In this document: piece after piece, positions 5,001 through 53,323 of the stretch
How positions within the stretch are numbered: the stretch's first letter is position 1
Layout: each line of letters begins with the position of its first letter
DNA from: Podarcis cretensis
Taxonomy: Eukaryota
Length of the DNA stretch: 64,000 nt
Assembly (NCBI GenBank): GCA_951804945.1
Contig: OX638153.1
Span: 31,372,001-31,436,000, forward strand
Direction: 5' to 3'
Notes under the pieces: model-generated
Database searches by the model: none
Told to the model about the DNA's origin: nothing
Seen by the model: the letters and a program-made list of their open reading frames with translations, nothing else
Position numbers and translations under genes: made by a program

Positions 5001-5788
5001 TCCGAAGCAAACCCTTTTTTTGCAAGGTGAGCTGGGTTATATATTCACCTTTCTGGGAGGCAAGAAGAAGAAAGAAAAATCTTTCCTAAGGAAGGTTGGA
5101 AAACTCTCCTCCGAGCTGCACCACGGCAGCTACTTCCGAGCGTTGGGGGGCGGGGGGGGGGCTGTGTTTGGGAACTATTCCCGACGCACTTGTGGAAACC
5201 TCTCCTCTTTGGGTCCCCCTGACTCAGGCAGCACCACGACGACTTCTTTCCCCTGACCTTCCCCGTCCCTCTCCACCACCCTCTCTTCAAAACCGCGACG
5301 TCTGAGGAGAACAGCGGGGGGAACCGTCCCGTGGTCCCACCAGCGCGGGGCAAACTCGGCCCGCCGAGGCCCCCGCCCTCCCCCGCTACCGCTTAATAGC
5401 AACGTTGTTTGGGGTCTTCGATTACCAAAAGAGGGGTGGGGGAGAGCGAGAGAGGGCGATAGCGCAAAGCAACTGTTTTCGTTTCTTTACTCTCCCCCCC
5501 CCTCCTTAAGTAATCCAGCTCCCCTTCTCGACGCCGCCGGAATAAGCGCGGGCAGAAGAATCCATACGCACAAGCGGCAAAGTGGGAAACGGGCTCGAGG
5601 TAGGTGTGTGTGTGGGGGGGGGTGTTTGAAAGTCTGAGGTAACTTTTAGGAAGCGGGTGGGAAACCAGGAGAGATTACAGGTCTCTCTCCACCTCAGCAA
5701 AGTCCTGAAGAGACGAAGCAGCGCTACCCGCCTTTCCCCCCCCACCCTCAGCCCCGCTCGCGTTCCCCCGAGCCGCGCCGAGTCTTAC

Positions 5789-5885
5789 CTGCGTGGCAAA
5801 GCCTCAGGTTGCCGATGCCCCCCAGCAGCAGGAGCAGGACGATCCCGCCGGGGCCAGAAACTCCCCGGCTCCAGGCAGGAGCCAT
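5789..5885 (-). CDS. UNC5B: First coding exon (signal peptide) of a secreted or type-I membrane protein; best match netrin receptor UNC5B (tentative)
   Basis: ATG at 5885 in strong Kozak context (GCGATGG) encodes MAPAWSRGVSGPGGIVLLLLLGGIGNLRLCHA plus 1 nt, then a consensus donor CAG|GTAAGA (phase 1), inside a CpG island. Hydrophobic core is typical of a signal peptide. The end (RLCHA-G) resembles human UNC5B exon 1 as I recall it (LLLALLLCWDPRLSQA-G, also phase 1). The exon call is stronger than the gene name. Confidence 0.6.
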
Positions 5886-6248
5886 CGCTGGGCGCGGACG
5901 AGGCTGCCGCGTCTGCCGCTCTCCTGCGCCTCCTCCTGCGCCGCCGCCTCCTCGCCCTCTCCAGAGGCGCCCTCCTCTTCTGCTTCTTCCCTCGGCAGCC
6001 CTTCCAAAGCTCCAGCCTCCCCGCCCGGCGCCCCAAGACTGCCCTGCTCCCGCCGCCTCTCGCAGCCACGCTGTGGGGACGGGGGGCCGCGCAACACTTC
6101 CTCTGCCCACAGCGGGGAAAGGGGGGACCCGCCGCCGCCGCCGCCGCCGCCGCCGCGCGAGGAAGAGGGTCGCCGGTGCCGCCGAGCCGCTCCTGCGCTG
6201 CCAGGCTGGGCAGCTCCTCGCCGCTCTCCAAGTTGGTAGGAGCGGCGC

Positions 6249-7480: not shown

Positions 7481-7626
7481 GGGCCAAATAGCTCAGTTGG
7501 TAGAGCATGGGACTCTTAATCTAAAGATCATGGGTTGGAGCCCCATACTGGGCAAAAGATTGCTGCATTGCAGAGGGTTGGACTAGATGACCCTCATGAT
7601 CCCTTCCAACTCTACAATTCTATGAA
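7481..7626 (+). mobile_element. tRNA-derived SINE with CR1-type tail
   Basis: TAGCTCAGTTGGTAGAGCATGGGACTCTTAATC head; CCCTTCCAACTCTACAATTCTATGA tail. Confidence 0.8.
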
Positions 7627-7937: not shown

Positions 7938-8089
7938 TCGTAGAATCATAGAATTGTAGGGTTAGAAGGGACCACAAGGGTCTTCTAGTCCAACCCTCTG
8001 CAATGCAGAAATATTTTGCCCAACGTGGGGCTCAAACCCACAACCCTGAGATTAAGAGTATTGTGCTCTTCCAGTTGAGCTATCCCAGC
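7938..8089 (-). mobile_element. tRNA-derived SINE with CR1-type tail
   Basis: Reverse-complement homolog of 7481-7626 (tagaatcatagaattgtag ... tgagctatccc). Confidence 0.8.
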
Positions 8090-13095: not shown

Positions 13096-14412
13096 AAGAT
13101 GGTGTGGCTGCTGTTACATGCTGACAGCTTGTAGGAGCCACAGGTGAGAGCTGAGTGCAGGGCGGGGACCAAAGGTGGCCCAACTACCCCAGAAGGAGCA
13201 TGATGTGTTCCCCACCAGAGGTACTACCCCTCCCCTAACACCCCAAACATTTTAAATTTCCAGTTAAATCTTTCCACAACTTTCCACAACACCTGGAAAA
13301 GATGTAAACTGTCTTCATGTTTGCCCATACAAGGAAAAGAGCAACGTTAGCATCTAAGGCTCAGATTGCTTTTTTCTCAGGTGCTGTTTCTCGAACTTCT
13401 GAGCTATACCCTAGGGAAGAGAAAAGAAGGCACCTTCCACTCCCCCAAGGCTTTCCCTTGACTCCAGCACTGATCCTTCACATACTGTATATGAAGAATG
13501 GCAGCAGAGCACATTCTGAAGCTTGAGGGAGACTGGTATAGTTCAGGCTCTGAAGTAACAACTATACGTTATGGTAGGTACATACCTAATCTGACCACCT
13601 TTCTTCTTTTATGTGTGGGGAAATGCAGCCATGGGCTCCATAGCAGGAATATACTCCTGATACAGCACTAATTTCCTGCAGAAAGTCCTCTGCGTGTCCC
13701 CAAATGTGCTGGTTATTGCAAACAGAACATTGAGGTGCAAGTAGCAGCCAGGCAGGGGGCAATTTGCACCAGGAAACTGGTGTGAGTTTCTCCATTCTAG
13801 ATCAGGAGCACATTCTGGAGCAGGGGCCCACAGCTTTTTTCCCCCATGAAATGAAAAATGCCATTTTTAAAAAATGATTGTGATGTCTAAACCTAAATTG
13901 CTTCTATAAAAAAGCACACCCACCATCATCCTGAAATGGAGGATCCTCTTAATCAAATTTATTCAAAATCTCCTTCGTACGCCAGATTTGTTTCTTTGCT
14001 TAATGTCTGAGATCAAGGCTGTTGTGAGCAACAGACCAGGCTTTAAAACTAAATGTACACATTATTTCAGCCCTCTTTTTTCAATCATGTCAATGGTTGC
14101 CAATGTGGAGTTCACCTAAAATACTTTAATAATGCAAATAGAATTCCAAGCAGAAAGAAAACATGGGGCCAACATGATGAGCCTGGCACCAAAGATGACC
14201 AAGCATTAGCCACCAAAAGCCTGTCCAAATGGAATGGCAAGGCGGATGGACTTGTTTCTGGTTTTGTCACACAGCTAAGAAGCAAATAGAGAAGTTCAGG
14301 GGCCAGCACCAAAAAGGTCAGTTCAGTTGTAGCCACTACTTAATAGAAGGCCTTCATAATTAGAGGCCTCTCATCCCTATATCTTGGTCTTCCTGAAAGT
14401 TCATCTGGAGGA

Positions 14413-14544
14413 AGGTTTCCCAACCTTGGGTTTCTAGCTGTTGTCAGACTACAACTCCCATCATCCCTAGCTAGCAAGATCAGTGGTCAGGGATGATGGG
14501 AATTGTAGTCCCAAAACAGCTGGAGACCCAAGTTTGGGAAACCT
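14413..14544. mobile_element. Palindromic hAT MITE, same family as 1393
   Basis: AGGTTTCCCAACCTTGGGT ... ACCCAAGTTTGGGAAACCT; shared core CCCATCATCCCT...AGGGATGATGGG. Confidence 0.8.
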
Positions 14545-21169: not shown

Positions 21170-21305
21170 TAGTGATTCTCAAACTTGGGTCTCTAGCAGT
21201 TGTTGGACCAAAACTCTCATCATCCCTAGCTAGCAGGACCAGTAGTCAGGGATGACCAGAACTGCAGTCCAGCAACAGCTGGAGAACCAAGTTTGAGAAA
21301 CACTG
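21170..21305. mobile_element. Palindromic hAT MITE, same family as 14413
   Basis: AGTGATTCTCAAACTTGG ... CCAAGTTTGAGAAACACTG. Confidence 0.8.
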
Positions 21306-23244
21306 TTATCTAACAGCATTAGAAAAAAGGAAAATGGCACTATGCCTATTTATCTTTCTGCAAGAGATGCATCTTGCTTTCTGTGCAAGCCATTGCTGTA
21401 CTAGACATCTCTTAGCCTGCTCATTCTCTGCATGAGTCTTTTTATGTCTCTCCCCACACTTTATGCAATGCTGCATAAACCAACAATGCTCTGAAATCCA
21501 CAACAGAATCAGACCGGAATAAATCCATATTTTTTTTTTTAAAAAAGAGAATAAAAAGCAGCTGCAAGGTTTCAAGGACACCCATTGTTTGATTCAAAGC
21601 TGGGGCAATGAGTTCTTCATCACTGTTGAATGGAATACTTGGCTTCTTTGGAATTAAGTAAAGTATACTTAGCCTGGAGACAGAAGATAGTTTCTGAGAG
21701 AATCGCTTCCCATGGAGCAAAAGCAGGATGAGTATGGACACCACTGGCAATGATTCCTCTTTCAACCAAGCTCTGTGAAGGAAGGGGAGGGGAAGCAATC
21801 GTCTTCAGCTATAGTTGTGTAGAATCATAGGCTGCTTGAGTGAGACATATCAAAACCAGCCCCCAGCAGAAAAGAGCGATCCTTCACATTTCAACTGCTG
21901 AATCATATTACCCATATCTTGTGTCACAAGCAACACCACACTGCACCACGCCAAAGGTGCCTGCAATGCACTGTTTCATGTTGAGGGTTAGAAAGCATAA
22001 ACAAGGCAAGGAGGGCTGTGAAACAACCGAATATATGACAAGAAGACTCTCAGACTTGATCCGGCTGCACAGAGCTCCCACCCAGCTTCTAACCATGAAA
22101 CCTTTTGCCCTTCAGATCCTTGAAAATAAGAATGGTGACCAAAGAGATTAACCGAAAGAGAATCATGAGGAAAACATCTTCCCAACGAAGCTATAACAAG
22201 TAGCTAAACGCAGCATTTGGGGGTCAGAGAGCTGCAATCCCATTGGCCATGAAGAATCGCCCATCCTATCTAATCCTCTCTCAATGGTGCAGCAGAAAAA
22301 GGGAGGGTTTTTTTGAAACCTGCATGCATGATAGCACCACAGCACATTTTAATCTGCCCATGACAAGTCTGTTTTCTTGTGCCGTGATACCACTGCTGCA
22401 GTACTGCTTTGCTGGTAGGCTAGGGTGAGCGTGGTGACTCGCAAGGCTATGACTGACAGTTTCATTAAGCAATTCCATTGAATTTAGGGCCATTCACGTA
22501 GCCACTTTCGGGTGCAGTGACCCATTTGTCAACTTGCAATGGCAAGTTCAGCCCTCCCTGTGTAACATTCCGAACTGAATGGTGTGGTTGGTCCAGCACG
22601 TTCCACCCAAACTGTGCTGAATGACAACCTTGTTGTCTCCGTGTTGGCCATTATTCCCTGCATTCCAGTAAGCACCAAGGTAGTTCCATCAGATCAGCAT
22701 TGCTCGAGGCTGAAACATGCTCCTTCTTCTAAGCAACAGAGGCTGGTCCATGGGTGCAAATGAGACAAATGGCCCTCACAGCCTCAACCAGCTCTTGGCT
22801 GCCTGTCTTCTTACTTATGATGAGCAAAGGGATGACTGTACCTGTCACTGACTTCACCTCTTGGTTTCTCTGTCTTCTCCACTTCCAGTCCCTACAGGCT
22901 GAGGTCTACTGTACCATACCTCAAATACATTGCTCTGCAATAGCTTTGTGCTACCATTTCAGGAGTATACAGAACTGTGCATGGATCTATTCTTTATGAA
23001 TTCACTTAAAGCTTTTAAAAAAGCAAAGTAGATGTTGGCTGTCTACCGTTTTCAGCAGCGATGCACCCGAATCCCCTTCTCGCCATGTAAGATCTTGCCA
23101 AAATTACCCATGTCTCAAAACCACATTCTGCATTTGTCTGCTCCATATCTTTGGCTGTGTGAATGGGGCAGAAATGTGGGGCGAAGGGGCACAGAGTCAT
23201 ATATTTCTGACTACCAGAAACTGAGGTCAAGTTATCTATCTATC

Positions 23245-30248: not shown

Positions 30249-30886
30249 TAGCACTACTTTGGATCCAAGCCTTTGTGCCTCGTTCTGTGGTTGTGAGCAT
30301 TGGAGAAAATCTCAAGCTTCTCCACTTCCTGGCTGGTATTTTGCCCTTCATCTTCCACTAATAACACAAATAACCGGATCCCTGAACTGGAATTCTGTTG
30401 GACGCTGTCTAGACTCAAAGCTGGTTGCCTGGGACAATGGCATAAACCAAGGCACTGTGATCAAAAGTGATGTTTTAGGCACTATCAACACAGCCCTATA
30501 GGTGCCAGCTCTGAACCAAGCTCAGTGGGGCTTACTCACACAGGTAAGTGCACTTATCATTGCAGCCTATCTACATCTACATTTGACCTGGGAATGGAGT
30601 CTCATGTCCTGGGGAGGTGGGGAGGAGAAAACAACAACCCGGATCTGCAAGCTGTAAACAGAGGCCACAAATCCCTGTCAGTATGTTACCTAAATTATTT
30701 ATTGTCCAGAGGGTACAATAACTATCAAAAATTCATCGGCAATAATGTTCTACAACCTCAAACTGACAGTTCTGCTATTTTGAGTGTGTGCAGCCTTCCT
30801 GGGGTGTCAGATCTCAAAAGTTTGCTTCACAAAAAACACACACAGGGCATAAGCAGGATGACATGGAGACTTGAGGCCCTGCTTTC

Positions 30887-31199
30887 TGTTGATTTGTAGC
30901 ATCCAAGTGCACAGCGGAATGATGAGGAATACGTGCCAACATGCTCTGTATTGCTTTATTTACATTTCATAGCTGGTAGATTACAGAAAACCATCTTGTC
31001 TCTGCCGAAGCAGAAAAATGCATCCTCTCTCCTCTGAAGCACAGAGAGAATCACACTGAACAGTGAAAAACAGGAAACCAGTGTACGTCACATCCAGCCT
31101 CCCTTTCCCATGGGAAAACTCCAACAGTAACTCTGTGGAATGTAAACATTGTCTTGTGACAAGCCTTTCGCTGCACAGTGAAGAGAGCAGAAACCAACA
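30887..31199 (-). repeat. 3' LTR of the copia element
   Basis: 313 bp, preceded on the minus strand by the PPT; carries AATAAA (plus-strand tttatt, 30955-30960). Confidence 0.97.
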
Positions 31200-31213
31200 T
31201 CCTCCCCCTTTCT
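31200..31213 (-). promoter_or_regulatory. Polypurine tract
   Basis: Minus strand AGAAAGGGGGAGGA directly abuts the TG of the 3' LTR. Confidence 0.92.
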
Positions 31214-31246
31214 GTGAACACCACTGGGCAGCGTGTTCGTACAATA

Positions 31247-34200
31247 TCAGTACAAACCCAACTTCTGCACATAGGTACAGTGTTGATCCCTTGATACAAT
31301 CTTGGACAATACATCAGCAGGAATTTCATTACCTGGCATATAGGACACCGTTACGAGTCCCTTCTGAATACGTTCCCTAGCATGTTGCAACTTCAATTGC
31401 AAGTGCTTCGTGCTTTGCTTACAACCTTCAGAATTCAGCAAAGCCAAACATGCTTTGTTGTCCTGGTAAACCTGGATTGGACATTTGACAGGAATTTTCA
31501 TGTCTTTGCACAATTGTAACAACCATTCACAATCCTTAAGTGAATAAGACAATGCATTCAGTTCAGCTTCACAAGTACTTAAGCTAACTGTTGTTTGCTT
31601 CTTGCATGACCAATCAAATAGAGCCTGATTGTACATATAGCAAACTCCAGACGTGCTTTTCCTGTCTGTAGTGTCACTTCCAAAACTTGCATCTGCAAAT
31701 ATCTCAAGACCACCAGACTTCTGATTGTTAAATCTCAGTCTGTAATGCATAGTGCCTTTCAAATACCGCGCTACGCGTTTCAGAGCTTTCCAATCCTTAA
31801 CAGTAGGATTGTTGACTTGTCTGCTTAGCAAATTACAGCTAACAGCAATGTCTGGTCTTGAACATCTGGCAATGAAGTTTAGCTTGCCTAGCACACTTCT
31901 GTACAGTGTAGTGTCAGAAAATGCTTCTTCAGTGTCATCTACCTGATAACCTGTTGTCATCGGTGTGTCTACAGGGTTAGCATCCATCAGGTTTAGTTTG
32001 CTTAACACATCAGCAATTTTCTGTGACTGGTGTACTAGAATGTTACCATCTTGATCTCTTTCTATTTCCAGAGATAGGTAGTTGTTTACCTCACCAAGAT
32101 CTTTCATGTCAAAGTGTTCCTTCAGTTGAGCTAGGGCGTTATTGTACATTGTGACATCATCCCAAAAGAATAATAAATCATCAACATAAAACAAACAATA
32201 CAGTTTCTTTTGCCCCTCCTCTTTGACAAATACACATGGATCAGCTTTCCCTTGCTTAAAACCTAGAGAAAACAATACTTCAGTGAGTTTTGTGTGCCAA
32301 CACCGTGCACTTTGTTTGAGACCATAAAGGGATTTTTTCAGAGCACAAACAAATCCCTGTTTTACCTGTACGCCATCAGGTGGAAGCATATAAAGTGATT
32401 CATCTAGAGATCCGTACAGAAAAGCTGTATTCACATCGTGGTGACTAATGTGTAGATTCTCCTCTGCAGCTAGCTTAAGCATAAGTCTAATGCTCTCATA
32501 CCTCACTGTGGGTGAGTAGGTCTCGTGATAGTCTTCACCTGGTACCTGTGCAAAACCTCTGGCTACCAATCTGGCTTTGTGTCTGACTATCTTGCCATTT
32601 TGATCAGTCTTCGCTTTGAAGACCCATTTGCTTCCAAGCAGTTTCATTCCTGGAACTACTGGAACAAGTTCCCATGTTTTGTTCCTTTCCAAGGAATCAA
32701 GCTCAGCCTTCATGGCATTTAACCATGGCTCAGCTTCCTTTGAATCCAAATCCTGGATTTCTTGGAAACTTGAAGGTTCAAATACCTTCTTGGAGCTTTT
32801 AACAGCTGTTACTGCTATCTTGGCAAACTCATCAGCAAATCTCTTTGGAGGTCTGCCTTTTGTGGCTCTTTGTGACCTGCGAATTAGCCTTAGGTCTTCA
32901 ACACTTTCCTCTTCCTTCTTAGGAGAAAAGCGACCTATTGTGAACAATGGTTCCTCCAATTCTTGATCAGAGCTTTCAGAGGGTCGCATAGAGGCTTTCG
33001 CACTCTTGAAATCCTCTGAATCACCTGATTCAGTTTCAGACTCAGAATCAGAACTTTCATCAGTGGGTGTGGGTTGCTGCGGTTGCTTTTGACTATCCTC
33101 AGTCTCATCACTGTCATCAGGATAACATTGGAAAATTCCCACATTCTCCCCCCACTTGGCATTGTACTCAACACTTCTTGTGAGCTTAATTGTCTTAGAG
33201 TCAGTCATCCTTATTCTGTAAGAACCTTTCTCATAACCTAGAAAGATACCATGCAAACCACGCTTGTCTAACTTGGAGTTTTGTGGTGAGTGAACCCACA
33301 TGTCAGAACCAAAAATTCTCATGTGTTTGATGTATGGCTTCTTGCCAAACATCTTCTCATAGGGGGTACAACCAATCGCTGAAGATAACCTGCGATTATA
33401 ACTGTAAGTGAAACATGAGAGAGCTTCGGCCCAATAACTCTCTGGAAGATTGGCATCATGTAGCAAGGTTTTTAACCCTTGAAGTAATGTCTGATTTGCT
33501 CGTTCCGCAAGCCCATTCTGCCATGGCGAGCGAGGACTAGACAAATCGTGTTGAATTCCTTTCTCAGTCAGAAAAGCTTCAAACTGCTGAGAAGTGAATT
33601 CTCCCCCGCGATCTGTGAAAAGAATTTTTACCTTCTTACCTTGCACATTTTCCAACCAAGCACAGAATTCCTTGAACCTAGGAAAAGCCTCTGATTTCTG
33701 CTTGAGATTGTACACATGAATATACCTGGAAAACGCATCAATGAGAACCATGAAGTACCTATTTCCTCCCAAAGAGGGCGCTAGTGGTCCAACCAAATCA
33801 GCATGAACAATTTGGTATGGTTCTGTAGCTTGCCTACTAGACACCTTACCTTTCGCAGCCATTTTCACCTTGTTTGCTGCGCATGCCTTGCACTTCATGT
33901 GGTACCTGCAGGGTTTAATAGTCATACCTTCAACCAAGGCAGGCATTTTAGATACTGCCTCAAAACCCAAATGTCCAAATTTTCGATGAAAATCATGAAT
34001 ACATTCTGCATGCAAACATTTGTTAGAACCTGCAATGCAACAAGTGTCATCCTGCACAACATCATCATAATACAAAACATACAAACGATCAACATATTCA
34101 GCATACAATACATAATCATTTTTCTTTGTGATGATGCACCTTTTGTTCTTAAAGGAAACGTCAATGTTCCGCTCATTCATCTGTCCAACGCTGAGCAGAT

Positions 34201-35275
34201 TATGTTTGGCATCTGGAACATAAAGTACATTCTGTATCGATAAGTCCAAACTGTGAAGAACAACAGTTCCGTAGCCTTTACTGGGAATTGTGTGGTCATC
34301 CGCCTGGTGAATCGCACCTTCCTGCGGTGTAAAAGACACGAACAGTCGCTTATCGTTGCACATGTGATGGGTTGCCGCTGAATCAACAACGAAGAAAGAT
34401 CTAGACGTCTTCTGGACCTCTGCAACTTTCGGAGTGAAGCGTGAGACCATTGCTTTGGGCTGCGTTGTCCTGGACACCGGACCTTTGCCTCTGCTTTGGC
34501 CTTTTCCACGCGATGAGCTTTCGCTGCGCTGCTCTGTCTTGGCCCTGGGATATCTGCATTCCCTCTTCATATGGCCTAGACGTCCACAGGAGTAGCATTT
34601 CACTGCCTTCAAAGCTTTGGCGCCATCTGGTGGTTCCACTGCACTATGGGATGACGTCTGTGAAGACTCCCCCTTTCCCATGCAGCCAGCACCCCGGCGA
34701 TCTGCTTCATTTTGAATCACGGCAGTAACATAATCCACTGTCAGCTGAGCGGTAGGCTGTACAGCAATCTGAGTCGCAACAGACTCCCAACCTGAACCCA
34801 AAGATTGTAGTATCATGAAGGAATACACAGCCTCTGGAAAGTTGAGTCCTCTCTGTTGCAGCTCATGTCTCAGATTCTGCATCTCCATCAGATGTGTACG
34901 CACATCTCCACCTTCAGCAAGAGCCATATTATGCAGCTTGTTAAAATAAAACATAGTAGACCCAGCTTCTGTCCTCAAGTGTGCCTCCCTCAAAGCGTCC
35001 CAAATTTCTCTGGCTGAGGTCTTATCACGCAATAGACAGAGCTCTTCTGGGGATACTATCAATGTAAGAGTTCCCCTTGCTTTGGAATCTTTAGCTTTCC
35101 ATGCATCTGTAACTGGAGCTGGGGGGGTGTCTGTAATAACTTCAAACAGACCCTCTTTCCGCAGAATAGCCTCTGCATAGATAACCCAGTCCGTATAATT
35201 CTTCTTATTGAGCTTGGGAATCCCACAAGCATCCTGAAGGGCCACCATGACTCTGGCATTAGCCTTCTGCGTCAT
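31247..35275 (-). CDS. Copia gag-pol polyprotein (~1342 aa from first ATG)
   Basis: Gag LNKKNYTDW; CCHC knuckle CYSCGRLGHMKREC; protease DSAATHHM; HHCC (HRKFGH...CKAC); integrase D-D-E (HADLVGP, TDRGGEF, NGLAER); GIFLGY motif; RT KARLVARG, LYGLKQ, YVDD; RNase H ADASF, RKSTSG, EAE, QDN, ADVLSK. No stops or frameshifts. The ORF-track start at 35293 is a TTG; the first ATG is 35275. Confidence 0.97.
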   Translation of the reverse strand: MTQKANARVMVALQDACGIPKLNKKNYTDWVIYAEAILRKEGLFEVITDTPPAPVTDAWKAKDSKARGTLTLIVSPEELCLLRDKTSAREIWDALREAHLRTEAGSTMFYFNKLHNMALAEGGDVRTHLMEMQNLRHELQQRGLNFPEAVYSFMILQSLGSGWESVATQIAVQPTAQLTVDYVTAVIQNEADRRGAGCMGKGESSQTSSHSAVEPPDGAKALKAVKCYSCGRLGHMKRECRYPRAKTEQRSESSSRGKGQSRGKGPVSRTTQPKAMVSRFTPKVAEVQKTSRSFFVVDSAATHHMCNDKRLFVSFTPQEGAIHQADDHTIPSKGYGTVVLHSLDLSIQNVLYVPDAKHNLLSVGQMNERNIDVSFKNKRCIITKKNDYVLYAEYVDRLYVLYYDDVVQDDTCCIAGSNKCLHAECIHDFHRKFGHLGFEAVSKMPALVEGMTIKPCRYHMKCKACAANKVKMAAKGKVSSRQATEPYQIVHADLVGPLAPSLGGNRYFMVLIDAFSRYIHVYNLKQKSEAFPRFKEFCAWLENVQGKKVKILFTDRGGEFTSQQFEAFLTEKGIQHDLSSPRSPWQNGLAERANQTLLQGLKTLLHDANLPESYWAEALSCFTYSYNRRLSSAIGCTPYEKMFGKKPYIKHMRIFGSDMWVHSPQNSKLDKRGLHGIFLGYEKGSYRIRMTDSKTIKLTRSVEYNAKWGENVGIFQCYPDDSDETEDSQKQPQQPTPTDESSDSESETESGDSEDFKSAKASMRPSESSDQELEEPLFTIGRFSPKKEEESVEDLRLIRRSQRATKGRPPKRFADEFAKIAVTAVKSSKKVFEPSSFQEIQDLDSKEAEPWLNAMKAELDSLERNKTWELVPVVPGMKLLGSKWVFKAKTDQNGKIVRHKARLVARGFAQVPGEDYHETYSPTVRYESIRLMLKLAAEENLHISHHDVNTAFLYGSLDESLYMLPPDGVQVKQGFVCALKKSLYGLKQSARCWHTKLTEVLFSLGFKQGKADPCVFVKEEGQKKLYCLFYVDDLLFFWDDVTMYNNALAQLKEHFDMKDLGEVNNYLSLEIERDQDGNILVHQSQKIADVLSKLNLMDANPVDTPMTTGYQVDDTEEAFSDTTLYRSVLGKLNFIARCSRPDIAVSCNLLSRQVNNPTVKDWKALKRVARYLKGTMHYRLRFNNQKSGGLEIFADASFGSDTTDRKSTSGVCYMYNQALFDWSCKKQTTVSLSTCEAELNALSYSLKDCEWLLQLCKDMKIPVKCPIQVYQDNKACLALLNSEGCKQSTKHLQLKLQHARERIQKGLVTVSYMPGNEIPADVLSKIVSRDQHCTYVQKLGLY

Positions 35276-35654
35276 CTCTGCTGCTTTAAACAAGCTGCTT
35301 TATACAAGCTGCATCTCTGCTGCTTCAAGCCTTATTCCAAAGGCAAGTTCAAAACAGCTTTCTCTCTGCCCTAAATCATGCTGCGTCACTTCTGCAGCTG
35401 CTTCAGCCCTTTTAAAAGTTACTTTCGATTTCGCCAGCATAGCCATAGCCGCTGCCTGTTTCCGGCAAACGGACATAAAAGTTCAAAGTCCAGCCATAAA
35501 GCCATTAAATAGAAGCTGGCAGGCTGCCCGGAGCAGTAGCACATACCTCATCAATCATCTTGACGCGCAGATACCGTCCGATCCGTGCCTTTGCATTCCA
35601 TTGCATACCTTGCCGGCACTCCGAAGTCCATCCGTCACTTTGACTGCGTTGTTT

Positions 35655-35668
35655 CTGGGCCCATAACC
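35655..35668 (-). promoter_or_regulatory. Primer-binding site complementary to the anticodon arm of initiator tRNA-Met
   Basis: Minus strand GGTTATGGGCCCAG, 4 nt after the 5' LTR; plus strand CTGGGCCCATAACC is an internal segment of tRNAiMet including the CAU anticodon. Confidence 0.92.
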
Positions 35669-35672
35669 AAAA

Positions 35673-35985
35673 TGTTGATTTGTAGCATCCAAGTGCACAG
35701 CGGAATGATGAGGAATACGTGCCAACATGCTCTGTATTGCTTTATTTACATTTCATAGCTGGTAGATTACAGAAAACCATCTTGTCTCTGCCGAAGCAGA
35801 AAAATGCATCCTCTCTCCTCTGAAGCACAGAGAGAATCACACTGAACAGTGAAAAACAGGAAACCAGTGTACGTCACATCCAGCCTCCCTTTCCCATGGG
35901 AAAACTCCAACAGTAACTCTGTGGAATGTAAACATTGTCTTGTGACAAGCCTTTCGCTGCACAGTGAAGAGAGCAGAAACCAACA
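35673..35985 (-). repeat. 5' LTR of the copia element
   Basis: 313 bp, identical by eye to 30887-31199; TG...CA ends; adjacent to the PBS. Confidence 0.97.
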
Positions 35986-37139
35986 CTTTCATGTAGGAAA
36001 CGTGACACCAAACTACTGCTTGGAAGGGAGTGATTCGTTTATTTACAGCCCTCCTGACTTACGGCGTTTCCATGTGACCTCTTTATTTGGCATTCCTCCT
36101 CTGCAGGGAGACGAGAGGCTGTCTTTAATTCTGACCTGTTTGCAAGGATGTTAGATGACGTTATGTCAAAGCAGACATTACCAACACGATTTCCAGAACA
36201 TTTCCCCCCGTCACTTCCCTTAACACAAAAGTCCTGTCTTTTGGGGAGGTGGGTTTGTTGCTCAAGAGCTTCCCAATCAGCTATGATTGTAAACCTGAGT
36301 TTGGTAGTAGGAGATTGAAAGTGCCCTGAGGGTAAGGTTCTAACAATGACAGCTTATTGTATTTCACTGGGTCTGCCGAAATTTTAGAACTTCAGTAAAC
36401 ACTGCAAAGATGTCCAGCTTTGACCTGAAATGCAGTGTGCACATATGCAGGCAAACGGATGAGGCACACTCCAGTTGAAGGAGCACCCTAATGAGAAAAC
36501 ACTCCATGCCTCACCTTTGTTGCACGTTGGGTTTTCATCCCCACCCTTCAGTTAAAGGAAGATCACTCTGGGTCTTCTCTCTTCACATATGCAGTATAAT
36601 GCCTGAACAACAGCCATCTGCAGCTCCTCCAGAGCCATTAAGATTTAACACGTAATCTGACAATCAACGCCATTTTGCAAACACTTCATGGGCTGGCCTC
36701 ATGAATGGAGGACTGAGCGGCAAAATCGACTGCAGCACTTCAGAGTGTGGGTGAGAAGATGCTTAAAAAAATAAACACCTCCCTTCATTAAAAACGACAA
36801 CAACTGAACAACACAGCAGATAAAGGACCGAACTGGAGCTTTCCCCCATAATGTGGAAGTTTCCAATTTGTAGGCTTTCTTGTCAGTTTAATGCAGAAGG
36901 ACATTAAAAAGAAGATCCCCTCTACTTATGTTTATTTGTTTAACGAGATTGTCATGCCGATTAAATCAGCAGAACGTCTCTAAATGGTTTTACGTAAAGC
37001 AATAAGAAATATTCAATAAGATTACAAATAAAAATCAAACCTGGGAAACAAGTTGATCAAAATGTAAGCAGTTTTAAAACAAGCATATGTCCTAAAAGTA
37101 CATGTGGAAAAGTACATGTCTGGGTAGGCTTTGCCAAAC

Positions 37140-52703: not shown

Positions 52704-53323
52704 CCATATTTTCCGCTCTATAGGATGCACCCAACCATAGGACGCACCTTGTTTTAGAGGGGGAGAACAAGAAAAAAAAATTCTCCCCCTCTCTGCTCTG
52801 CGCCCCTTCAGCGAAGTGGCAGGAGAAACGGAGCCCCTTCCATTTCTCCTCCCACTTGGCTGAAGGGGTGCTGCACAGCTCTCCCTCTCTGCTGAAGCCA
52901 GTAGAGTCTTGCTCTCCCGGCTTCAGCAAAAGGAACGCGAGACTCTCCTGGCTTCAGCGAAAGAAACCTGAAGCCTCCAGAGCGCAGCGGGAGCTCACGC
53001 TGCGCTCTGAAGGCTTCAGGCGGCTATCCCTGAAGCCTTTGGAGTGCAGCACAAGTTCCCACTCAGTCTTGCTCTCCCGGTTTCAGCAAAAGGAACCTGA
53101 AGCCAGCGGGGCGCAGTGGGCACCGACCCCTCTCGCTCTCCAGGCTTCAGCGAAAGCAACACGTAGCCTCCAGAGTGCGGAGGGAGCTCTCCCTGTGCGC
53201 TTCGGAGGCTTCAGGTTTCTTTCGCTGAAGCCAAGGCGCCTGCATTCACTCCATAGGACGCACACACATTTACCCTTAATTTTTGGAGGGGGAAAAGTGT
53301 GTCCTATAGAGTGAAAAATATGG
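52704..53323. mobile_element. Tc1/mariner (pogo/Tigger-like) non-autonomous element
   Basis: TA TSD; TIRs CCATATTTTCCGCTCTATAGGA / TCCTATAGAGTGAAAAATATGG; internal GAAGCC/GGCTTC repeats. Confidence 0.85.

Follow-up and report, generated by a model that had tools for sequence, protein, structure and literature searches.

The question raised by this locus is whether a lizard genome can hold a retrotransposon that is both complete and so recently inserted that some chromosomes still lack it, and what sort of family such a copy comes from. The window, that is, the whole 64,000-nt stretch analysed (Podarcis cretensis, assembly GCA_951804945.1, contig OX638153.1, positions 31,372,001 to 31,436,000), carries on its minus strand a long terminal repeat (LTR) retrotransposon of the Ty1/copia type. 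An earlier interpretation made from the letters alone (the sequence-only reading) had proposed an intact, very recent and possibly polymorphic insertion of a recently active family, perhaps acquired by horizontal transfer. The element proves to be real, intact, recent and polymorphic. There is strong reason to believe that it is a probably autonomous Ty1/copia element, likely of the Mtanga clade, which integrated recently and still segregates, and that it belongs to a recombining family in which capsid-deleted copies, most likely hitch-hikers, are the majority. The parts of the insertion, in window coordinates, are as follows.

30887 to 35985, minus strand: full element, Ty1/copia, 5099 bp
30882 to 30886, no strand: target-site duplication (TSD), left copy, CTTTC; single copy at the empty site in sequencing runs X2 and X5
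30887 to 31199, minus strand: 3' LTR, 313 bp, TG...CA, identical to the 5' LTR
31200 to 31213, minus strand: polypurine tract (PPT) abutting the 3' LTR; same tract in 19 of 19 paired copies
35655 to 35668, minus strand: primer-binding site (PBS), 14 nt, the complement of the anticodon arm (nt 26-39) in host initiator methionine tRNA (tRNA-iMet), by comparison with host tRNA genes
35669 to 35672, minus strand: 4-nt spacer from 5' LTR to PBS, which varies among copies
35673 to 35985, minus strand: 5' LTR, 313 bp, identical to the 3' LTR
35986 to 35990, no strand: TSD, right copy, CTTTC

The TG...CA LTRs, the 5-bp TSD, the PBS and the PPT are those of Ty1/copia (Pseudoviridae). The two LTRs, which run from TGTT to AACA on the minus strand, match at 313 of 313 bases on alignment, and the identity breaks off exactly at both ends; the 64-kb window contains no N letters. 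Identical LTRs, a perfect TSD and an intact PBS and PPT had been read by eye, and all are borne out, with CTTTC on both flanks, the PPT immediately before the 3' LTR and the PBS 4 nt past the 5' LTR.

The interior is occupied by one open reading frame (ORF) with the following parts.

31247 to 35275, minus strand: single gag-pol ORF, 1342 aa (ORF list and Pfam)
31256 to 31708, minus strand: RNase H (RH) region, about aa 1190-1340 (motif-based)
31955 to 32683, minus strand: reverse transcriptase (RT) RVT_2, aa 865-1107, with YVDD (Pfam E 4e-70)
33164 to 34087, minus strand: integrase (IN) with HHCC region, DDE core and SH3-like domain, aa 397-704 (Pfam and motifs)
34166 to 34393, minus strand: aspartic protease (PR), aa 295-370, DSAA motif (Pfam and motif)
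34556 to 34597, minus strand: nucleocapsid (NC) CCHC zinc knuckle, aa 227-240 (Pfam and motif)
34685 to 34972, minus strand: capsid C-terminal domain (CTD), about aa 102-197, placed by reference to the Drosophila Copia capsid, whose CTD is 91-186, with an offset of 11
34751 to 34921, minus strand: gag segment, about aa 119-175, intact here and replaced in most family copies (copy comparison)

The Pfam matches follow the copia order, namely copia gag (E 1e-28), zinc knuckle, protease beta-barrel, pre-integrase, rve, SH3-like and RVT_2, of which the pre-integrase and rve_3 matches fall below the curated cut-offs. RNase H gave no Pfam match in the 1342-aa ORF and was recognised by its motifs; with it so placed, the order is gag-PR-IN-RT-RH, the integrase lying ahead of RT as in Ty1/copia. 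Ten catalytic positions were checked and all are present (protease D298; integrase D493, D555 and E591; YVDD of RT; RNase H D1195, E1238, D1272 and D1321), and each is conserved in 67 or 68 of the 68 sister ORFs that are intact. The sequence-only reading was therefore right about an ORF of some 1342 aa with the catalytic residues of integrase, RT and RNase H. Judged on its sequence, the element is structurally complete and probably autonomous.

Whether the insertion is fixed was addressed by comparing the contigs of four sequencing runs with the window. X2 is sample S2 of the best-matching organism and X5 comes from a second organism; in each, the empty site is seen in one contig, where 30881 is joined to 35986 and five letters are ambiguous. 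Since this site carries exactly one TSD copy in both runs, the insertion point is genuine, and since both runs bridge it, the insertion is not fixed. In X1 the empty allele is also present, with a small variant at that point, and there are contigs of the flanks that match the window exactly; this run may stem from a carrier or from the source individual itself and was not counted as independent. The suspicion of a polymorphic locus, recognisable by a single CTTTC, is thus confirmed by X2 and X5, and in small-variant form by X1. It might be argued that the locus was created by the assembly, or that the copy is old and gene conversion has made its LTRs alike, as no contig across a filled junction was found among the matches listed and 313 identical LTR bases bound the age only loosely by themselves. 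Such an explanation is hardly credible in view of the empty site with its single TSD copy and the unbroken ORF, and since no other sampled copy comes closer to it than 1.3%, the element is no collapsed repeat.

The age of the insertion is best considered together with that of its sisters. A search of the genome with the LTR gave 1664 candidates, of which 40 were scored, at 94-100%. The exact LTR end plus PBS was matched 110 times, with 100 of the matches listed, one of these by chance; 99 junctions, the window's included, were examined, 93 had both LTRs in the fetched stretch, and removal of a duplicated locus (L124) left 92 distinct paired copies. Among these 92 copies sharing the window's LTR end, 73 have identical LTRs, 78 a TSD and 70 an ORF of at least 1285 aa. 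Pooled over the 78 TSD-bearing copies of this youngest subset, 16 substitutions were counted in 25,044 LTR sites; at an assumed rate of 2e-9 per site per year, the mean age of those copies is about 0.16 million years. The claim of a very recent insertion from a recently active family accordingly stands, supported by the identical LTRs, the empty site and the young sister copies. None of the runs listed as sharing the element's sequence words is on record as RNA; X12, which is RNA only by guess, covers the element and not its unique flanks, and low-depth DNA of a multicopy repeat would look alike.

The copies differ by a mean of 2.0% in pol, so that this divergence was gained over rounds of replication and not after insertion. 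Among 68 intact ORFs, the ratio between nonsynonymous and synonymous differences (pN/pS) is 0.06-0.20 in the pol domains and 0.66 in gag, the latter figure spanning both gag alleles described below, and the values for pol indicate purifying selection on it. Synonymous diversity in the family is about 5%. APOBEC-type hypermutation was considered and rejected: the changes private to single copies are a mixture of transitions (G>A 90, A>G 74, C>T 67, T>C 48), with at most 5 private changes of a single transition type per copy. The share of solo LTRs is low for the youngest LTR variant, with 213 LTR ends for 110 junction matches; one solo LTR, L050 (G000:C1:275693-276016), lies between a perfect 5-bp duplication.

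Some loci are irregular. L123 and L124 (G000:C8:81445061-81461019) are separated by 10 kb and agree in length, TSD and PBS variant; either the inserted copy was later duplicated, segmentally or in tandem, or the assembly contains it twice. A matching TSD is absent in 14 of the 93 paired copies (L073, L086 and L108 among them); three TSD-less copies with 7-10 LTR substitutions suggest recombination between copies at different loci, and some of the others may be script boundary errors. Several older copies (L144-L158), whose LTR end differs and whose spacer before the PBS has 5 nt in place of 4, mark an earlier wave of the family.

The most unusual property of the family concerns gag. In 64 of 98 distinct copies the window's gag segment of about aa 119-175 is missing and a shorter, divergent stretch stands in its place, with a net loss of 117 nt, in frame. 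Exact 27-mers counted genome-wide gave 154 copies of the intact and 307 of the deleted allele, both lower bounds, and hence at least 461 family copies. What the segment encodes can be judged from the predicted structure of the window's Gag, which is confident (pLDDT 88; a single-sequence fold of it reached only pLDDT 38.6) and has the solved capsid of Drosophila Copia as a match both in sequence (E 5.6e-10) and in fold (E 2.8e-8), at a capsid identity of 21%. In the Drosophila protein, the passages of PMC11835246 drawn on here place the CTD at residues 91-186 and assign inter-subunit contacts to it. The lost segment spans the predicted helices 125-141, 148-158 and 161-171, three of the five in the CTD. 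A 69% identical relative, P0001, retains the segment, which makes the loss the derived state.

One might suppose that the short form is a functional alternative capsid and that both classes are autonomous. The preserved frame would fit this, as would the similar pN/pS of the remaining gag (0.51 and 0.59 for aa 1-118 in the two classes). It is distinctly unlikely, given that most of the CTD helices are gone, that the residues after the deletion have diverged by 36% at nonsynonymous sites, and that the CTD is where subunits of the Copia capsid make contact (PMC11835246, in the part consulted).

The intact segment is nearly invariant: over 117 nt, the window's sequence recurs without a mismatch in 32 of 33 other copies, where 17 other stretches of the same size average 0.5-3.3 mismatches. 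A tree of IN-RT-RH from 68 intact ORFs requires 18 changes of gag class, against a mean of 18.8 over 200 label shuffles; pol therefore shows no sorting according to gag class, the outcome expected from co-packaging and template switching. Open frames of full length are equally frequent in the deleted (47/61) and intact (23/31) classes, as are identical LTRs (49/61 and 24/31), and both alleles are found in older and younger copies. Among the 22 broken copies, one identical frameshift is common to three deleted-class copies and one stop to two copies; ORF breaks are mostly private and have seldom spread.

Truncated Gag is a known means of limiting Ty1 copy number. By analogy, the capsid-deleted allele could be a self-encoded brake, in which a Gag made of N-terminal domain (NTD) and NC co-assembles with the intact protein, poisons the particles and limits copy number. 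The deleted Gag does retain the NTD and the zinc knuckle, the occurrence of both alleles in older and younger copies speaks for stable coexistence, and structures of the Ty1 capsid CTD restriction factor are among the weak fold matches of the window's Gag. Yet the Ty1 factor keeps the CTD, the very part lost in the short allele, and deleted copies outnumber intact ones 2:1 while being equally young, which fits a replicative advantage. A brake is for these reasons considered unlikely. The short-allele copies are most likely capsid-defective hitch-hikers that would use the intact Gag of other copies; they combine a gag lesion, retained pol and recent mobility, as do elements of the IAP 1Δ1, BARE-2 and Tos17 type. 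No capsid-deleted lizard copia was found in a literature search, whose scope left most subscription papers and Repbase outside.

A cycle consistent with these data can be proposed from copia biology. The 5' LTR would drive genomic RNA, and the protease would cut the gag-pol polyprotein. For the minus strand, RT would use as primer a 5' piece of host tRNA-iMet that stops in the anticodon arm, for which the complementarity is observed, and plus-strand DNA would start at the PPT. Integrase would then insert the DNA and leave the 5-bp duplication seen here. RNAs of the short allele would be packaged in particles of intact Gag from full-gag copies and recombine there with intact-allele RNAs, and short-allele copies would need their own ORF open in cis.

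The priming step deserves closer attention. The PBS is complementary at 14 of 14 nt to nt 26-39 in five of five tRNA-Met genes of the same genome, which we take to be initiator tRNAs, and it has no match to the 3' end of these five genes. Complementarity of this kind suggests a cleaved tRNA-iMet as primer. Priming at the anticodon loop is described for Ty5 and Drosophila copia in the passages of PMC10886601 consulted; anticodon-arm priming in an amniote copia was not met with in the literature consulted. The PBS varies within the family: among 99 junctions, 44 are canonical, 34 have lost one G and 21 carry other changes, and the first seven bases are retained in 98. The last 40 LTR columns show two departures in 92 copies, although the pattern used in the search itself fixed 18 of the 40. 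PBS variants are linked to the adjacent leader haplotype (p 0.0015) and unlinked to sites more than 50 nt away; one variant is confined to a single haplotype (8/19), on which the one-G loss never occurs. Their use as clade markers was rejected, as they are scattered on both the pol tree and the leader tree. This variation is most economically explained by simple inheritance with a short essential core, and repeated error or partial correction while the primer is copied is possible. The leader just after the PBS (window 35600-35654) is itself variable, with at least 14 haplotypes in 98 copies, one of which contains, a few bases downstream, a degenerate PBS-like motif resembling two of the PBS variants.

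Taken together, these features suggest a more specific picture, which is put forward as a serious but still tentative possibility. In a stable two-allele family, a CTD-less cheater at a frequency of about two thirds, in frame with pol, would ride in the capsids of the near-invariant intact allele while pol is shuffled between them; the altered PBS seen in some half of the young copies, and associated with the leader haplotype, would possibly record error-prone copying of, or partial correction by, a half-tRNA primer.

Where the family came from was approached by two protein searches, each scoring about 8000 candidates. Among these, the nearest named relative is an Elgaria lizard protein (59% over half of RT-RH), and two relatives of unassigned origin are closer over RT-RH, P0121 (80%) and P0001 (70.5%). 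Copia elements of invertebrates, plants and fungi lie at 32-43%, the best named invertebrates (Trichuris, Araneus, Cordylochernes) at 36-43%; outside the lizards, the best named RT-RH matches are proteins of Trichuris muris. On a 42-row tree, the window, P0121, P0001 and Elgaria share a branch of length 0.86 (SH-aLRT 100) apart from invertebrate and plant copia, and this lizard group lies beside a set with Trichuris and Araneus proteins at weak support (SH-aLRT 83). One entry on file as the Gag-Pol of an 'Atrato Retro-like virus' (P0025) sits among ordinary copia polyproteins and is probably a retrotransposon filed as a virus.

The rarity of copia, which the sequence-only reading had taken as its background, does not hold for this genome. 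Copia is indeed absent from mammals and birds (PMC4350176, in the part consulted); it is not rare here, with at least 461 copies in this genome and, according to the available passages of PMC11889832, copia in 23 of 24 squamate genomes, which contribute 66% of all copies in a survey of 263 metazoan genomes. The same passages state that Lepidosauria hold only the Mtanga clade and leave open an ancient horizontal entry of Mtanga into sarcopterygians; they use a Trichuris muris cluster as a Mtanga reference and list lacertid clusters, and supplement rows, whose headings were not seen, give values read as copy counts of 1004 for Podarcis muralis and 304 for Zootoca vivipara. The element is likely to lie within the squamate Mtanga radiation, and its family may already be among those clusters.

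Recent acquisition from an invertebrate or another distant host is highly improbable, and recent transfer from arthropods, as the sequence-only reading had envisaged, finds no support. Two of the closest relatives, P0121 and P0001, are of unassigned origin and closer than the named lizard match, and PMC11889832, as far as consulted, allows for Mtanga entering sarcopterygians horizontally. Against this stand the distance of every named invertebrate, the clustering of the window with an anguid lizard copia, the synonymous diversity of about 5%, the older copies with 1-3% LTR divergence, and the density of the family in the second organism (X5). Runs labelled as six further organisms hold 36-46% of the sampled words. 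Long residence in squamates would fit this pattern.

Several points weigh against the overall interpretation. The filled allele rests on the assembly, as no filled-junction contig was among the matches listed, and X1 may be the source individual. The 92-copy subset was chosen by an LTR-end motif and is biased to young copies: 20 copies outside it yielded 15 LTR pairs, of which one was identical and 14 were at 97-99.7%, and a full ORF was present in 4 of the 20. The family tree is star-like, so that the lack of sorting by gag class may partly reflect weak signal or gene conversion between genomic copies. A net deletion is in frame one time in three by chance, and the dependence of deleted-class copies on intact Gag is deduced from sequence.

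Around the element, none of 48 flank ORFs of at least 110 aa has a Pfam match above cut-off; short exons would be missed by such a scan, and an intronic position is therefore possible. A GC-rich island at about 5.5-6.7 kb contains, by eye, an ATG with some 32 signal-peptide-like codons followed by a GTAAG donor (5788-5888, minus strand), which is probably the first coding exon of a host gene that runs left out of the window, about 25 kb from the element and pointing away from it. No effect of the insertion on a host gene is shown within the window. Other repeats are present. A tRNA-Lys(CTT) call by ARAGORN is the head of a 138-nt repeat in two inverted copies (7483-7625 and 7946-8083), more likely a tRNA-derived short interspersed element than a tRNA gene. 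Four degenerate units of 62-67 nt with nested inverted arms (52943-53233) are perhaps a fold-back element, and a palindromic repeat of about 135 nt, resembling a miniature inverted-repeat transposable element, occurs in three copies (1394-1527, 14404-14542 and 21175-21312).

A single insertion of this kind is ordinary for a squamate, in which such elements are already known and abundant; what is new is the majority in-frame gag allele without most of the capsid CTD. The insertion provides a dated polymorphic marker and more evidence of live LTR retrotransposons in lizard genomes, the family data add probable anticodon-arm tRNA priming in an amniote copia, and the large young population makes retrotransposon recombination and selection measurable within one genome.

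Barley BARE-2 is reportedly a gag-defective hitch-hiker of the same type as the short allele. Among better documented systems, the squamate Mtanga Copia resembles the present family in reaching hundreds of copies in a squamate genome, and its description in the passages of PMC11889832 consulted is without PBS type, polymorphism or gag alleles. Corn snake Copia, possibly active now, is full-length, probably active and polymorphic, with 85 copies more than 95% identical; it caused two colour mutants, in OCA2 and CLCN2 (PMC4657000, PMC11948899, as excerpted). It is 5832 bp long against 5099 bp here, causes phenotypes where no gene disruption is seen here, and is likened by description and not by sequence. 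Drosophila copia and yeast Ty5 share a tRNA-iMet anticodon-arm PBS (PMC10886601, in part) and a single ORF, the resemblance in priming being one of complementarity here; Drosophila copia differs in that capsid identity is only 21% and in the variable 4-5 nt spacer before the PBS of the present family. Parallels to the short allele are mouse IAP 1Δ1 (PMC7411935) and rice Tos17 (PMC3977881), in which, according to the portions consulted, a form with damaged gag has retained a long ORF and does no worse than the intact one; IAP 1Δ1 needs its own fusion protein in cis and helper proteins in trans. Unlike these two and BARE-2, the lesion here is confined to the capsid CTD with all pol enzymes retained, and the short form acts as an allele recombining in one family instead of a separate subfamily. 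If such a cheater-helper pair is true, models of coexistence become testable in a vertebrate.

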